Part shown: positions 11,481 through 62,169 of the stretch, one piece after another
Layout: every line of letters starts with the position of its first letter
How positions within the stretch are numbered: position 1 is the first letter of the stretch
IMG/VR virus record: IMGVR_UViG_3300009678_001574
Origin: a virus
Reading direction: 5' to 3' (one strand)
Length of the DNA stretch: 64,000 nucleotides
Made by a program: the position numbers and the translations under genes
The notes under the pieces: model-generated
Told to the model about the DNA's origin: nothing
The model's database searches: none
Seen by the model: only the letters and a program-made list of their open reading frames with translations

Positions 11481-11797
11481 TGGCTAACTTCGACGAAATA
11501 CTTACTAAAGGCAAGGGCAAAGTCAAAGGCTCTGGCGGAACTAAAACTAAAAAAGACCAATGGAAAGAACATATTAGTTTGCTCATAACCATTATGACCA
11601 AACTCAATGGTATGTATGGTGCCGATGACAAGCATCATTTTCTAGTAGAACAAGCAAAATGCGGGAAGTGCAACAAGGTAACGTATCTGATTGCTATCAG
11701 GGATATTGAAAACAATAAACAGGTAATCAGATTTCATAATTCTTCTTGGAAGGTGATTAGCAAAGACACCTATCACTGTGATGTGTGCAAGAAGTAA
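11480..11797 (+). CDS. Hypothetical zinc-ribbon protein
   Basis: CGKC and CDVC pairs. Confidence 0.5.
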   Translation: MANFDEILTKGKGKVKGSGGTKTKKDQWKEHISLLITIMTKLNGMYGADDKHHFLVEQAKCGKCNKVTYLIAIRDIENNKQVIRFHNSSWKVISKDTYHCDVCKK

Positions 11798-11807
11798 TGA
11801 GGTTAAA

Positions 11808-12905
11808 GTGAATACTGTATTGGTAGACTTACAGTTAGGCGATTGTGGGAAAGGAAAGATAGCAGATCATTTAATGGAAGAACATGACATATGCGTTAGA
11901 TACTCTGGTGGGCCTAACACCGGAACAACCGTATGGACGAATGGAATTAAATATAAATTACATCATCTCCCTGTTGGACTCTTACGAAACAAGCCGAGCT
12001 ATATAGCACAAACTTGTCTAGTGAATCCTGCCAAGTTGATGAAAGAAATAATTGAATTAAAAGAATTGGGCTTTGATGTGGATAAGAATTTGAAGATTTC
12101 TCCACACTGTCACGTAATTACACAAGAACATATAGAGCGTGATATAGCTAATGAAACGAGCGGCTTAAGTTCTGGCGGCGTTGGTTCGACAAAGCAAGGT
12201 ATATCACCTTGTTCCCAAGACAAATACGCACGCAAGGGAATTCGTTTAGTAGAGCACGGCGGCTTTGAAAAATACTTGGCCGATGTACCACTTGATTTGA
12301 ACCATGCCATCAAACGCGGTAAGAGTATTTTATTTCAAAGCTCACAAGGTACGATGTTGGATATAGACCATGGTAATTATCCGTTTGTTTCTACAACCTC
12401 TAATATTGCCGGTGCAGCAGCTATGGCATGTGGCATAGGCCCACAATATATAAATAAGGTTATTGGTGTGTTTAAGCCCTATCTAACTTATGTTGGTGTG
12501 GGTGAATTCCCAACTGAAATAGCTGATGAGCAAGTTAATGCAACAATAGCAGAACGAGGCTATGAGTATGGAACTACCACAGGCCGTCGGCGTCGTATCG
12601 GTTGGTTAGATTTACCAGCGCTTGCTTATGCCTGTATGATTAACGGAGTACAAGAATTGGCTGTTACCAAGTCTGATGTACTAGAAGATATGCCAGTTCA
12701 ATATAGTGATCGTTGTTTGTTAGAAAATGGCGCATCCATTTATCTGCCATTTGACCATAAATATAAGGCTTGTTTAAAGAATGCTGATAACGTTAGAGAC
12801 CTATTGTATATTGTTACGGAAGACCTCAAGCGTATATACGACTTGGGTATTAGATTAAAATATATTTCCACAGGTAAGAATAGGGAAGAGATGAGGATAC
12901 TATGA
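11808..12905 (+). CDS. purA: Adenylosuccinate synthetase (short form)
   Basis: QLGDCGKGK, R.SGGPNTG.T, G.GSTKQGI, QGTMLDIDHG.YPFV, YGTTTGR.RRIGWLD; GTG start with GAGG RBS. Confidence 0.92.
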   Translation: MNTVLVDLQLGDCGKGKIADHLMEEHDICVRYSGGPNTGTTVWTNGIKYKLHHLPVGLLRNKPSYIAQTCLVNPAKLMKEIIELKELGFDVDKNLKISPHCHVITQEHIERDIANETSGLSSGGVGSTKQGISPCSQDKYARKGIRLVEHGGFEKYLADVPLDLNHAIKRGKSILFQSSQGTMLDIDHGNYPFVSTTSNIAGAAAMACGIGPQYINKVIGVFKPYLTYVGVGEFPTEIADEQVNATIAERGYEYGTTTGRRRRIGWLDLPALAYACMINGVQELAVTKSDVLEDMPVQYSDRCLLENGASIYLPFDHKYKACLKNADNVRDLLYIVTEDLKRIYDLGIRLKYISTGKNREEMRIL

Positions 12906-19504: not shown

Positions 19505-19730
19505 TTGCATAGTGCGCAATCCGGAATCGCTGGCCTGTATAACCTTTTTGCATATCCCGCAACTTTTGCATACAACGCAGCGGAATGCGGTAGGAAAAGA
19601 TTGCATACCTCGCAAACATTGCACAATCGCCACGAATTGCGGACCCGGAAAAGATTGCATACGTCGCAAAAATTGCATACCGCGCAGGCCAAAACGGCGC
19701 CGAACCACGCAAAAATTGCATACGTCGCAA
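19505..19730. repeat. Array 1 of TTGC-N7-GCAA palindromes
   Basis: Perfect copies at 19505, 19548, 19601, 19655, 19716; imperfect at 19566, 19619, 19673. Confidence 0.9.
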
Positions 19731-19741
19731 GTTTTTTTTTC

Positions 19742-19771
19742 TTGACAACGCACCGCGTCATGCGGCAAAAT
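19742..19771 (+). promoter_or_regulatory. Sigma70-like promoter P1 with palindrome in spacer
   Basis: TTGACA-ACGCACCGCGTCATGCGG(18)-CAAAAT. Confidence 0.6.
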
Positions 19772-20228: not shown

Positions 20229-20232
20229 CTCA

Positions 20233-20303
20233 GGCCGAAACCTAGGGCGCGCTAGTACAGGCGCCCGATGGTCTACGGGTATGGTGCCCGTACTGAGGAG
20301 GCC
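20233..20303 (+). ncRNA. Hammerhead ribozyme (type II, open stem II); predicted cut after 20273
   Basis: GGCC-GAAAC ... GUC / UACGGG-7nt-CCCGUA (stem I) / CUGAGGA-GGCC; complete CUGANGA, GAAA and GUC core. Confidence 0.9.
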
Positions 20304-20306
20304 GTC

Positions 20307-20546
20307 ATGGAAGGTTTGCACGTCGAGTTGCGCCGTCTGCGCATGAAGCCAGCGCCCATGCCCGTGAGTCCGCGTGAGGCTGTCGAGCCCACGCCTACGC
20401 CTGCCGCCGTCAAGGTGGTCAAGGTGTTCAACTCGGGTAGCGCCGAGGAGCGGAAGTTTGCCGAGAACATGGCGGTTATCGCCACGGCCTACCGCAACGG
20501 GCTCATCACGGAAGCCAAGGCCCAGGAGCTCGCGGCCAGACTGTAG
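20307..20546 (+). CDS. Early protein B
   Basis: GC-rich codons; RBS GAGGAG lies in the hammerhead core. Confidence 0.6.
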   Translation: MEGLHVELRRLRMKPAPMPVSPREAVEPTPTPAAVKVVKVFNSGSAEERKFAENMAVIATAYRNGLITEAKAQELAARL

Positions 20547-20580
20547 GACACACATACACACACACCTATGCGTGTGTGTC

Positions 20581-20645
20581 GGGATGCAAGCTATCACCTC
20601 CGCGTGGTGCATCCTGGGCAGGCATGGTGCCTGGCTAACGATGGC
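20581..20645 (+). ncRNA. HDV-like ribozyme 1; predicted cut between 20580 and 20581
   Basis: P1 GGGAUGC/GCAUCCU (G1.U wobble), P2 GCUAUC/GAUGGC, P3 ACC/GGU, L3 UCCGCGU, P1.1 CC/GG, P4 CAGGCA/UGCCUG, J4/2 GCUAAC with catalytic C20635. Confidence 0.9.
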
Positions 20646-20659
20646 AGAAAGTCACGGTC

Positions 20660-20857
20660 ATGTGTCGTGCGGACATTCGACGCCGCGTGGTAGCGGTGTT
20701 GGCCAACGGGTCTATGGGTCCGGGCGCCTTGCAAGATACGCTCTTCGACTTGGAGAGCCGCGAGGTGGCACGGGAATTGCGCGAGCTTGTGAAGCGCGCC
20801 GCCGTGAAACACAACGGCAAGGTCGGTCGCGGCAGTAGGTATGCCCGCGCCGTGTAG
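20660..20857 (+). CDS. Early protein C, small winged-helix-like
   Basis: VVAVLANG.M....L...L...VARELRELVK..AV...G..R...Y; fold is inference. Confidence 0.6.
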   Translation: MCRADIRRRVVAVLANGSMGPGALQDTLFDLESREVARELRELVKRAAVKHNGKVGRGSRYARAV

Positions 20858-20868
20858 GACATACGCCG

Positions 20869-21096
20869 TTGCACACTACGCAACGGTAGGACGGTAAGCA
20901 ATCTGCCTCCGCGTGGCACCGTCCGGGTAACGCTAAAGATTGCACAGTAGGCAAAGGTTGCATAGTACGCAACTCTTGCACACTGACACACACATACACA
21001 TGCACCTAGTTGCATAGTACGCAATCGTTGCGTACCCAGGACGAAGTGGCGTGCTCGCAGAAATTGCGTAGCCCGCAAACTTTGCATACCTGGAAA
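20869..21096. repeat. Array 2 of TTGC-N7-GCAA palindromes
   Basis: Perfect copies at 20869, 20940, 20958, 21010, 21064; imperfect or half sites at 20976, 21028, 21082. Confidence 0.9.
20889..20943 (+). ncRNA. HDV-like ribozyme 2 (minimal P4); predicted cut between 20888 and 20889
   Basis: P1 GGACGGU/ACCGUCC, P2 GCAAUCU/AGAUUGC, P3 GCC/GGC, L3 UCCGCGU, P1.1 CC/GG, J4/2 GCUAA with C20933. Confidence 0.85.
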
Positions 21097-21105
21097 GTGT
21101 GTGTG

Positions 21106-21180
21106 ACGCGGTGCAGCAAAATTTTGACGCGGTGCGTCGGTCGATTTTTGTTGACAACGCGGTGCGTCAAGCGGCAAAAT
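21106..21180 (+). promoter_or_regulatory. Sigma70-like promoter P3 with three ACGC-N3-GCG operator-like sites
   Basis: TTGACA(21151)-ACGCGGTGCGTCAAGCGG(18)-CAAAAT; sites at 21106, 21127 and 21157. Confidence 0.65.
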
Positions 21181-22970: not shown

Positions 22971-23040
22971 GTAGGTGGTAGGCACACATATACACACACA
23001 CCTACATACACATACAGTGTGCCAAGAAAGGGTTAAGTAC

Positions 23041-50017: not shown

Positions 50018-50100
50018 GGGTAGATGGCAGAGCGGCAATTGCAGGAGACTGTAAATCTCCCGCTTCGGCTTCGGAGGTTCGAGTCCTTCTCTACCCACCA
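50018..50100 (+). tRNA. tRNA-Tyr(GUA)
   Basis: GGGTAGA/TCTACCC acceptor, GGAGA-CTGTAAA-TCTCC anticodon arm, long variable arm, GGTTCGAGTCC, encoded CCA. Confidence 0.95.
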
Positions 50101-58870: not shown

Positions 58871-59200
58871 ATGCGAGCTGGATTCTTTGTTGACCGACTC
58901 AAGGTTCATATTGATTTTCCTGGAGCTACTAAGTTCAGACTTACCACTCTGTATCGCCAGAAAGAATTCGAGGTTGGTAAGCATAGATTCATTAATGCAG
59001 AAACACTTGAGCCTATCAAGTTTGTTTCTAACGATATTGCCTTCTACTTACTTATCAGTGAGCATACTGGAATGAATCCTAAAGACGACACAACCAGGTA
59101 TAGCTTTAAGGCTCAAATTACAGACCGCGGCGGTCTAGTAGGAGAAACGGTTCATAACAAGCCGCTCACTGTAGACTTCAAGATGGCGAGGAAAAAGTGA
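58871..59200 (+). CDS. Hypothetical protein
   Basis: 109-aa ORF. Confidence 0.5.
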   Translation: MRAGFFVDRLKVHIDFPGATKFRLTTLYRQKEFEVGKHRFINAETLEPIKFVSNDIAFYLLISEHTGMNPKDDTTRYSFKAQITDRGGLVGETVHNKPLTVDFKMARKK

Positions 59201-59673
59201 AGGAAGCAAGAGTAGATATTCTTTCGGCAGAGATTCTTAAAACCGCCGATGCTATCTGCTTCACCTCTAATGGCATTGTGAAATCCAATGGTGAGCTGGT
59301 TATGGGCGCTGGTATAGCTAAGGCATTTGCTGACAAGTGGCCGCCTTTGGCTATTCGAGCTGGTCACTGTGTTAAGATGGGCGGCAATAGAGTACATTGG
59401 CTAAAGGACATTTTTACTTATCGCCTTGACGATGGCAGTCATAAGTACGTAGCTGTTGTTTCTTTTCCAACCAAAAACGATTGGAAGAGTCCATCTAGTT
59501 TGCCTCTCATCATCGAATCTGCCACGCAACTATCTACTCTCGCTAATATTCGTAAATGGAACAATGTATATCTTCCTAGGCCTGGTGTTGGACTTGGTGG
59601 ACTGGATTGGAAGAATGTTAAAGCTGCTATCGAACCGCTACTTGATGACAGATTTACAGTAGTGTATAAGTGA
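59197..59673 (+). CDS. Macrodomain (ADP-ribose processing) protein
   Basis: TSNG.V..NG.LVMGAGIAK, FPTK.DW, PRPGVGLGGL.W. Confidence 0.85.
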   Translation: MKEARVDILSAEILKTADAICFTSNGIVKSNGELVMGAGIAKAFADKWPPLAIRAGHCVKMGGNRVHWLKDIFTYRLDDGSHKYVAVVSFPTKNDWKSPSSLPLIIESATQLSTLANIRKWNNVYLPRPGVGLGGLDWKNVKAAIEPLLDDRFTVVYK

Positions 59674-59980: not shown

Positions 59981-60412
59981 ATGCACACGATGAAAATTTT
60001 GCGAGGAGTTAGCGGCAGCGGCAAGAGCACCAGGGCTAAGGAGCTTTGTAAGGAAGTTCTTGGTCAGGGTAAGCAGGCTGTCACCTGCTCTGCTGACGAA
60101 TTTTTTGTCGACCCCGCTACTGGTGATTACAACTTCGACAGTCGTAAGTTGGGTGAGGCTCATGCTTGGTGCCGTGGCAATGCTCACATGGCTATGCGTC
60201 TCGGTGTTGACCTCGTAGTCATTGATAACACCAACACTCGTCGCTGGGAGTACGAGGGTTATATCAAGATGGCCACTGATGCTGGCTACGAAGTGAGCGA
60301 AGAAATCGTTGGACAGTTCGATGAGAGCAATCTCAAGGCGTATGCCAATCGTAACAAACACGGTGTTCCGCTGGATGCTATTCGTAAGATGGCACAGAGG
60401 TTTGAAAAGTAA
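59981..60412 (+). CDS. P-loop kinase, AAA_33 / N4BP2 / polynucleotide-kinase-like
   Basis: ILRGVSGSGKST, SADEFF, AH.WC, VVIDNTN...WE, RN.HGVP...I..M..RFE. Confidence 0.85.
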   Translation: MHTMKILRGVSGSGKSTRAKELCKEVLGQGKQAVTCSADEFFVDPATGDYNFDSRKLGEAHAWCRGNAHMAMRLGVDLVVIDNTNTRRWEYEGYIKMATDAGYEVSEEIVGQFDESNLKAYANRNKHGVPLDAIRKMAQRFEK

Positions 60413-61358: not shown

Positions 61359-61800
61359 ATAGGTTAATTAAGTTCGTAGAAAACAAGTACGTTAGCATTA
61401 CCATTGTAGTGTTAAACGTACTATTATTTCTAGTATCCAATGACAGGTCCTCTAAGATATTAAGCCTGGCTTGCATATGTAGCGTTGTGGTTAGCCAGCT
61501 ACTCAAGAGTATTCACAAAGACAATAACAAATGAACAAGGCTTATATAGTTCCTTTCGTTCTAGGAACGATATTCGGATGTTTCATTTGGTACTTTGGTA
61601 GCGAGATACTTAACCGTCCAACTAGTCGTGAACTAACTCCACAAGAGGAAGTTGAACGTATGATGGACTGCCTTGGAATAGGAGACTAACTGTGGATATC
61701 AAAGAGACACTTGTTGAAATTATCAAGCTTACGCATTCAACTGATGGTGGACAGGATTCGGCATATGAGCGCCTTCAAGACATTCGCAAAACGGCTGGTG

Positions 61801-62169
61801 ATGCTCTTCACAGCATTGACCCTGCTGCTGAAGAGGAAGTGGCCTTGGACTAGATACAAGGTATTCCTCGATGATGACAGGATGCCTTCTCAGATTTATG
61901 GACCTGGCGCTAATAGTAGGTGGACTGTTGCTAGGACCACCGAAGCTGCTAAGGTCCTGCTACTTACCGGCAAAGTAACTCACATCTCCCTTGACAACGA
62001 TTTGGGTGACGGGCAGGCTGAAGGTCACACTCTTTTGTTTTGGATGATAGAGAATGATGTTTGGCCGTCCGACTTCGTTGAAGTTCACTCTGCTAATATC
62101 GCCCGCTCCCCAGGAATGAAGGCAGATATTGAGCGCTGGTTCTACACCGCGAAAGGAAAGAAACGATGA
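61801..62169 (+). CDS. Cyclic-phosphate-processing receiver domain protein (start uncertain)
   Basis: KVFLDDDR.P, ISLDNDLG...EG..LL.W, VHSAN. Confidence 0.75.
   Translation: MLFTALTLLLKRKWPWTRYKVFLDDDRMPSQIYGPGANSRWTVARTTEAAKVLLLTGKVTHISLDNDLGDGQAEGHTLLFWMIENDVWPSDFVEVHSANIARSPGMKADIERWFYTAKGKKR

Follow-up and report, generated by a model that had tools for sequence, protein, structure and literature searches.

Most self-cleaving ribozymes of bacteria and phages are still without an assigned job. The purpose of ribozyme processing of this kind is still undefined (Weinberg et al. 2019 review, PMC6765202). Theta ribozymes are minimal HDV-like ribozymes found in Caudoviricetes, and self-scission in vitro has been shown for four of them (Kienbeck et al. 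2024, PMC10879173). In the phage databases of that study, 58% of theta occurrences were tRNA-adjacent and 42% were not, and it is the tRNA-adjacent members alone that have been explained, leaving thousands of “isolated” copies without a function (PMC10879173). Most of these non-tRNA members lie between genes, in sense orientation to the gene that follows, and they were described as having “unknown biological functions” (PMC10879173). In the 64-kb stretch of viral DNA analyzed here (the window), two HDV-like ribozymes, Rz1 and Rz2, sit on either side of one small gene, ORF C. What would two self-cleaving RNAs do around a single protein-coding gene?

From the sequence, we estimate a probability of roughly 0.7 that these are active HDV-like ribozymes within an early multi-ribozyme unit, where they would process the messages of ORF B and ORF C between cistrons. 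The ORF C message would most likely be cut out of a longer transcript by Rz1 and Rz2 together. The locus offers a clean, testable case for the isolated theta class.

Architecture of the two ribozymes

Every helix of the nested double pseudoknot that characterizes HDV-like ribozymes (P1, P2, P3, and P1.1) could be located in both Rz1 and Rz2, as the original prediction had claimed (Table 1). In each ribozyme, P2 closes the outer pseudoknot, J1/2 is 2 nt long, and the catalytic C opens an A-rich J4/2. This C is invariant in two related metagenome contigs, L119 and L120. The two ribozymes have the same L3 (UCCGCGU) and the same GCUAA but unlike P1, P2, and P3, and the second, for which a minimal P4 had been proposed, has only a 6-nt L4 of the theta type; all of this can be read directly from the sequence. 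Both ribozymes lie where they had been placed, except that Rz1 ends at 20645 and not at 20646. The unit that cleavage would release (20581-20888) was recomputed at 308 nt, and the only gene between 20645 and 20889 is ORF C, in line with the proposed bracketing of one small gene. Judged by their sequence, we confirm Rz1 and Rz2 as genuine HDV-like ribozymes, with self-cleavage as a prediction, while the wider interpretation first given to the locus is partly supported.

Table 1. Coordinates of the ribozymes, their surroundings, and a second ribozyme-bearing contig
Feature	Position	Strand	Details and basis
Rz1, HDV-like ribozyme with 5-bp P4	20581-20645	+	Descriptor match, Rfam sub-gathering matches, L119 pairing
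Rz1 P1	20581-87 with 20609-15	+	7 bp, first pair G1.U
Rz1 P2	20590-95 with 20640-45	+	6 bp
Rz1 P3	20596-98 with 20606-08	+	3 bp
Rz1 L3	20599-20605	+	UCCGCGU
Rz1 P1.1	20600-01 with 20616-17	+	CC of L3 with GG just after P1
Rz1 P4	20619-23 with 20629-33	+	5 bp
Rz1 catalytic C	C20635 in CUAA	+	Predicted cut C20580/G20581; sequence
Rz2, minimal theta-type HDV-like ribozyme	20889-20943	+	Descriptor match, RF00094, Supplementary Data File 2 entry, L119 pairing
Rz2 P1	20889-95 with 20918-24	+	7 bp
Rz2 P2	20898-904 with 20937-43	+	7 bp
Rz2 P3	20905-07 with 20915-17	+	3 bp
Rz2 L3	20908-14	+	UCCGCGU
Rz2 P1.1	20909-10 with 20925-26	+	CC of L3 with GG just after P1
Rz2 L4		+	6 nt, replaces P4; sequence
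Rz2 catalytic C	C20933 in CUAA	+	Predicted cut A20888/G20889; sequence
CA/GU hairpin, 3' UTR of ORF B	20558-20579	+	8 bp, 1 nt before Rz1 cut; RNAfold of 20541-20580
Spacer from Rz1 to ORF C start	20646-20659	+	14 nt with AGAAAG ribosome-binding-like tract; conservation
ORF C, minimal winged helix-turn-helix (model level)	20660-20857	+	65 aa; codon differences, AlphaFold2, Foldseek
Hairpin, 3' UTR of ORF C	20865-20887	+	8 bp, 1 nt before Rz2 cut; RNAfold
Downstream context, outside ribozymes	20940-21180	+	Four more TTGC-N7-GCAA sites, ACGCGGTGCGT, promoter-like module at 21151
Promoter-like modules TTGACA-N18-CAAAAT	19742 and 21151		Nearly identical; overlapped by ACGCGGTGCGT palindromes
TTGC-N7-GCAA arrays	19505-19730 and 20869-21078		Five sites each, one array ahead of each module
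Type II hammerhead, ORF A/ORF B gap	20229-20306		RF02276, 24 bits, sub-gathering; GUC cut after C20273
Macro domain	59197-59673
AAA_33 P-loop kinase	59981-60412
cREC_REC cyclic-phosphate-processing receiver domain	61711-62169		64.8 bits (gathering threshold 27)
Theta-like ribozymes of IMGVR_UViG_3300036832_001178	L024:873-927, L081:279-333, L081:1124-1178		Descriptor

Rarity, family scores, and conservation of the fold

To gauge how rare such structures are, we wrote our own descriptor after the segment scheme that Kienbeck et al. (2024) give. In its strict form, Rz1 and Rz2 were the sole matches on both strands of the window, and a relaxed form (any pair accepted in P1.1, one mismatch allowed in P2, and up to 40 nt in L4) returned the same two sites and added none. 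Matches were absent from 300 dinucleotide shuffles of the whole window and from 2000 of the 6.2-kb GC-rich region that surrounds the locus. Run in E-value mode, the Rfam HDV model (RF00094) aligned end to end with both ribozymes, at 34.4 bits for Rz2 and 30.3 bits for Rz1 against a gathering threshold of 50. Both also matched drz-Fpra-1 of F. prausnitzii (RF02682), a bacterial ribozyme that likewise has a short P4: Rz1 aligned with it from end to end, although at 23.8 bits it fell under the gathering threshold of 44, and Rz2 scored 21.0 bits. drz-Fpra-1 is located in the leader of a chromosomal gene. At gathering thresholds, Rfam returned two tRNAs alone and no ribozyme in the 64-kb window; its HDV-type models encode neither pseudoknots nor a minimal P4. 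Minimum-free-energy folding was dropped as a ribozyme test for Rz1 and Rz2 because the method cannot treat pseudoknots and was thus uninformative.

Conservation was assessed with L119 and L120, which had been recruited by ORF C homology and not by structure. L120 is nearly identical to the window, and L119 is the only informative relative. All pairs of both ribozymes are kept in L119 despite 13 differences in Rz1 and 9 in Rz2. Seven of the nine in Rz2 fall in P1, where they make up three double compensatory changes and a G-C to G.U change at the first pair, and the remaining two are at variable L3 positions. When nine random substitutions were introduced into Rz2, all 19 pairs survived in 147 of 200,000 trials. 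In Rz1, the 6-bp P2 is rebuilt as 7 bp in L119, including a paired insertion, and the pair that closes P4, C-G in the window, is U-A there. The DNA of ORF B, by comparison, is 74% identical between the window and L119, with 22 synonymous and 19 non-synonymous differences. These compensatory changes point to selection on the ribozyme fold while the adjacent ORF B drifted.

Might Rz1 and Rz2 nonetheless be decaying or selfish cassette copies that no longer cleave or are useless, or even chance look-alikes? Both score below Rfam gathering, and they have L3 and J4/2 in common, as duplicates would. Yet L3 and J4/2 are class-wide, P1, P2, and P3 are entirely different between the two, the catalytic and structural positions are all intact, and the 2300 shuffles gave 0 matches. 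Together with the compensatory changes in L119 at a time when ORF B had fallen to 74% identity, this makes such an origin very unlikely.

Two apparent results were not relied upon. A covariation table of 21 theta-like sequences gave 100% pairing and was not counted as independent support because it is circular, 19 of its 21 rows (all but Rz2 of the window and of L119) having come from descriptor searches, either ours or the published ones. The 61% P2 pairing in a three-sequence alignment of Rz1 was a MAFFT gap artefact, and each sequence pairs fully in its own register. Further relatives were not found with ORF C or its alignment in the viral and genome contig collections, with the ORF C homologues P0005 and P0007 in the viral contig collection, or with the Rz2 pattern in the viral and genome contig collections; the phage collection yielded just one short, unrelated match, to ORF A. 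The descriptor did recover an HDV-like ribozyme at L112:1112-1178 (IMGVR_UViG_3300035208_008029), whose 17-nt P4/L4 is 1 nt away from that of Rz1 and whose P1 and P2 are unrelated. This ribozyme has a GC hairpin plus 1 nt on the 5' side of its cut; on the 3' side, a ribosome-binding site and ATG lie 44 nt away.

Relation to the published theta catalogue

The theta motif used with RNArobo consists of a short L4, a J1/2 of 1-3 nt, a U-CC-NCGN L3, GG, and C-N-R-A in J4/2, and Supplementary Data File 2 holds the non-tRNA (“isolated”) members (PMC10879173). Rz2 is one of them: it is printed letter for letter in that file as no. 2288, with seven occurrences in public reads, and no. 2676 is a variant of it with one compensated P1 pair. 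In keeping with this, Rz2 fits the segment scheme 7-2-7-3-1-2-4-3-7-2-6-4-7 exactly and carries the L3 core, the P1.1 GG, and the CUAA of the class. By contrast, Rz1 lies outside the motif as given there, with a P4/L4 of 17 nt against 8 nt for the longest L4 seen in the final published list, and its L4 string has no occurrence in the supplement text searched (PMC10879173).

Neither ribozyme falls in the tRNA-associated subgroup, whose members cut no more than 5 nt from a tRNA 3' end; ARAGORN and Rfam placed the tRNAs of the window only at 50018 and 51265. Both belong in the isolated subgroup by lacking a tRNA neighbor. A resemblance to the tRNA-adjacent members is that the upstream RNA would be left with 1 nt past a helix, like the discriminator base of a tRNA. 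The published matches came mostly from gut phages (PMC10879173), and the two ribozymes here differ from the tRNA-adjacent ones in not lying beside a tRNA. An mRNA rather than a tRNA setting had been put forward as a departure for theta ribozymes. This does not hold given that the 42% of non-tRNA occurrences was already reported and that Rz2 equals entry 2288 (PMC10879173). Rz2 thus has a catalogue entry and a non-tRNA setting with precedent, while Rz1 is a new member of the HDV-like class.

The bracketed gene and its neighboring palindromes

The window and L119 differ at 11 codons of ORF C, all of them by synonymous changes (0 non-synonymous), and judged by these ORF C is a real gene under purifying selection. 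The spacer leading to it is conserved, with bases 20647-20659 at 100% identity in L119 and L120. HMMER over 1.8 billion representatives found seven ORF C relatives with a conserved wing motif; the ORF C homologues are P0002-P0011, of which P0002 and P0003 are 84-86% relatives. AlphaFold2 modeled ORF C at a pLDDT of 87.8 as a three-helix bundle followed by a two-stranded beta wing (H3-14, H21-27, H33-45, E49-51, E61-63). Foldseek matched this model best to ArsR/SmtB repressors (CzrA, SmtB), HlyU, Zalpha, and DsrD, with TM scores of 0.73-0.80, a probability of 1.00, and a best E-value of 2.9e-3. In Pfam, HTH_20 and HVO_A0261_N gave no above-gathering match to ORF C (best 16.3 bits versus 35), and its relatives reached a sub-threshold 16-22 bits against HTH families. 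The proposed winged helix-turn-helix fold is borne out at the model level, where AlphaFold2 and Foldseek agree, and ORF C is to that extent supported as a winged-helix protein.

Several smaller observations surround this gene. One homologue, P0006 (812 aa), contains seven tandem copies of an ORF C-related domain with many winged-helix Pfam matches. GAAAG tracts similar to that of ORF C are also found 5' of ORF A and ORF D. A 9-mer common to the stop codons of ORF B and ORF C was rejected as a signal, being absent at ORF B in L119 and L120. Alternating purine-pyrimidine CA/TG tracts occur in intergenic DNA at 20547-20580, 20975-21005, 21088-21097, and 22975-23010, the first of which forms the hairpin ahead of Rz1. 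These tracts and the Foldseek result prompted a Zalpha-like, Z-DNA-binding reading of ORF C, which we set aside. Residues in helix 3 and the wing are essential for Zalpha, and they are not evident in the ORF C alignment.

Palindromic sites are concentrated around the locus: 10 of the 12 TTGC-N7-GCAA sites of the window lie in the two arrays, Rz2 falls between the first and second sites of the downstream array, and the site at 20940-20954 overlaps the 3' strand of Rz2 P2. The stretch 20944-21145 is 97.5% identical to L119, above the conservation of neighboring coding DNA. In L119, the site at 20869 is the reverse complement of the consensus site. ORF C had been suggested as the regulator of the neighboring palindromes, and it is at most a putative binder of the TTGC-N7-GCAA, ACGC-N3-GCGT, or ACGCGGTGCGT sites.

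This layout could also suggest a regulatory switch, in which cleavage is conditional on upstream or alternative pairing, metal ions, or ORF C bound to the hairpin or TTGC site, and ORF C governs its own message together with read-through to the next promoter region. Regulated cleavage has been raised for phage hammerheads (Perreault et al. 2011, PMC3088659), and here one site (20869-20883) abuts the Rz2 cut and the next overlaps Rz2 itself, the array after Rz2 is 97.5% conserved, and the bracketed gene encodes a strongly constrained winged-helix protein. However, ORF C is without any tie to the TTGC-N7-GCAA sites, and alternative pairings of more than 4 bp were not seen. Moreover, the other array of the same sites, at 19505-19730, has no ribozyme nearby, so these look like promoter-upstream DNA sites. 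A switch is improbable in our view, and processing between cistrons is still the reading that we favor.

Hairpins before the predicted cuts

An 8-bp hairpin, absent from the original prediction, ends 1 nt before each predicted cut. The one before Rz2 has a dG of -12.6 kcal/mol and a z-score of -3.96, with 0 of 200 shuffles folding as well, and in L119 its stem is kept and extendable by two pairs although three bases differ. Because this hairpin includes the TTGC-N7-GCAA site at 20869-20883 and thus doubles as a DNA site, its conservation may reflect DNA binding. Still, that site is explained at least as well as an RNA hairpin ending 1 nt before the Rz2 cut. The z-score of the hairpin before Rz1 was not significant compared to shuffles, since its CA/GU repeat composition folds anyway, and its stretch has no differences from L119.

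Whether this layout recurs was examined in theta-like ribozymes gathered from IMG/VR with two L3 words and our descriptor. This survey gave 84 unique matches, of which 28 non-redundant cases were left after tRNA-adjacent and tRNA-like cases had been dropped. A hairpin of at least 5 bp ended within 5 nt of the cut in 13 of the 28 ribozymes, compared to 166 of 1120 random positions at the same loci (15%; Fisher p = 9e-5), while half of the surveyed non-tRNA ribozymes are without an upstream hairpin. The enrichment is a modest lead on the role of isolated theta ribozymes.

One viral contig of 47 kb, IMGVR_UViG_3300036832_001178, has three theta-like ribozymes in consecutive intergenic gaps. They share a common P2 and have different P1 helices, and each is followed by AGGAGG and ATG after 33-43 nt. 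Hairpins lie 1-4 nt ahead of two of the cuts, and the third ribozyme is directly 3' of a terminator-like hairpin with a T run. This contig and L112 come from unrelated phages with unrelated flanking genes, and both were found by the descriptor. It is possible, though we consider it doubtful, that a hairpin, 0-5 nt, and an HDV-like or theta ribozyme together form a general device for terminator-free mRNA 3' ends in phages. The role of theta ribozymes in trimming tRNAs would then extend to protein-coding messages, and in this phage the 5'-OH and cyclic-phosphate ends would be recognized or healed by its kinase and cREC enzymes, or the ORF C RNA would even be made circular.

A proposed model for processing between cistrons

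The reading that we favor can be laid out as a series of predicted steps. A transcript would start at the promoter near 19742, and each ribozyme would fold into its nested double pseudoknot and cut at its own 5' edge. HDV-type ribozymes have no requirement for sequence upstream of the cut. The upstream RNA would therefore be trimmed, scar-free, to a hairpin plus 1 nt, and processing between cistrons becomes the most economical reading of a ribozyme that cuts at its own 5' edge without such a need. The ORF B message would end at 20580 and the ORF C message at 20888, each with a hairpin, 1 nt, and a 2',3'-cyclic phosphate, while the RNA downstream of each cut would begin with a 5'-OH and a compact ribozyme. 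From its 5' end, the ORF C message would consist of Rz1, the 14 conserved nt with the ribosome-binding tract, and the start codon. The product would be a 308-nt monocistronic message, independent both of ORF B and of transcription that reads through into the promoter region beyond. The hairpin left on the trimmed message may shield its 3' end. As studies of the HDV ribozyme suggest, a hairpin in this position may also stop upstream sequence from disturbing ribozyme folding. What we infer from this arrangement is cleavage in vivo, its consequences for message stability and translation, and whatever part the phage kinase and cyclic-phosphate genes, which could act on the cleaved ends, might play.

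The end chemistry raises a further alternative, in which the 308-nt ORF C RNA, with its 5'-OH and 2',3'-cyclic phosphate, is circularized or re-ligated. Such ends follow from HDV-type cleavage (PMC6765202), and they are substrates for RtcB-type ligases or heal-and-seal repair. An AAA_33 kinase, a cREC_REC protein, and a macro domain are encoded at 59.2-62.2 kb, and on circumstantial grounds these proteins are candidate enzymes for 5'-OH and 2',3'-cyclic-phosphate ends. For paired phage hammerheads, circular or spliced products were considered, but Perreault et al. did not detect them (PMC3088659). In addition, a ligase gene was not found in the examined part of the window, and a hairpin at one end and a folded ribozyme at the other do not obviously bring the two ends together. 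We give end-joining very little credence, the least of any account considered here.

Comparison with other ribozyme systems

A close precedent is found in prophage hammerheads, which flank single genes and were proposed to cut long transcripts into single-gene messages, with multi-site cleavage shown in vitro (Perreault et al. 2011, PMC3088659). As in those prophages, the ribozymes here lie in successive gaps and bracket individual genes. In contrast to the hammerheads, an HDV-like ribozyme remains entirely within the downstream product, so that the upstream RNA carries no scar, and this phage has hammerhead, HDV-like, and twister types sharing one operon. Nor is the bracketing of single phage genes by ribozymes new, since for hammerheads it was reported as early as 2011 (PMC3088659). 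We regard the bracketed ORF C as a good illustration of a strategy that phages are known to use, and not as a new device.

Another parallel is provided by the HDV-like ribozymes of the R2 and L1Tc retrotransposons, which form the 5' leader and have been proposed to influence how translation is initiated (PMC6765202). There too, a coding RNA is released from a longer co-transcript with the ribozyme kept as its 5' leader. Those elements are eukaryotic and rely on cap-independent translation, whereas the phage message has a bacterial-type ribosome-binding tract within the 14 nt past the ribozyme.

If cleavage and an influence on message stability were established, isolated theta ribozymes would gain a function in making scar-free mRNA 3' ends and insulating the next cistron. 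The elements would then also be natural parts comparable to the ribozyme insulators of synthetic biology.

Genomic surroundings

The window comes from a very large phage-like genome, whose genes include those for thymidylate synthase, for a PurZ-like synthetase, and for an AAA ATPase as well as tRNA genes. Near 19.8 kb, at the start of the ribozyme-rich operon, GC content steps up from about 38-43% to 58%, and it then falls to about 45% across the next 30 kb. From 19.4 to 25.4 kb, further Rfam matches in E-value mode were a single type II hammerhead and eight of twister-P1, located where other genes of the operon adjoin.

In the hammerhead, the CUGAGGA core and stem II overlap the GAGGAGG ribosome-binding site of ORF B, and cleavage with strand release could free that site. 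Stem II covaries in L119, from GGCC/GGCC to CGGC/GCCG, and the L119 copy has an 8-nt insertion between the core and the ribosome-binding site.

Farther upstream, 11778-12905 encodes an adenylosuccinate-synthetase homologue with a match to phrog_1211 (E 1.6e-73), whose annotation is the PurZ-type enzyme known from 2-aminoadenine phages. The thymidylate synthase and an IMPDH/GMP-reductase-type gene lie near it, and the phage may have modified-base DNA.
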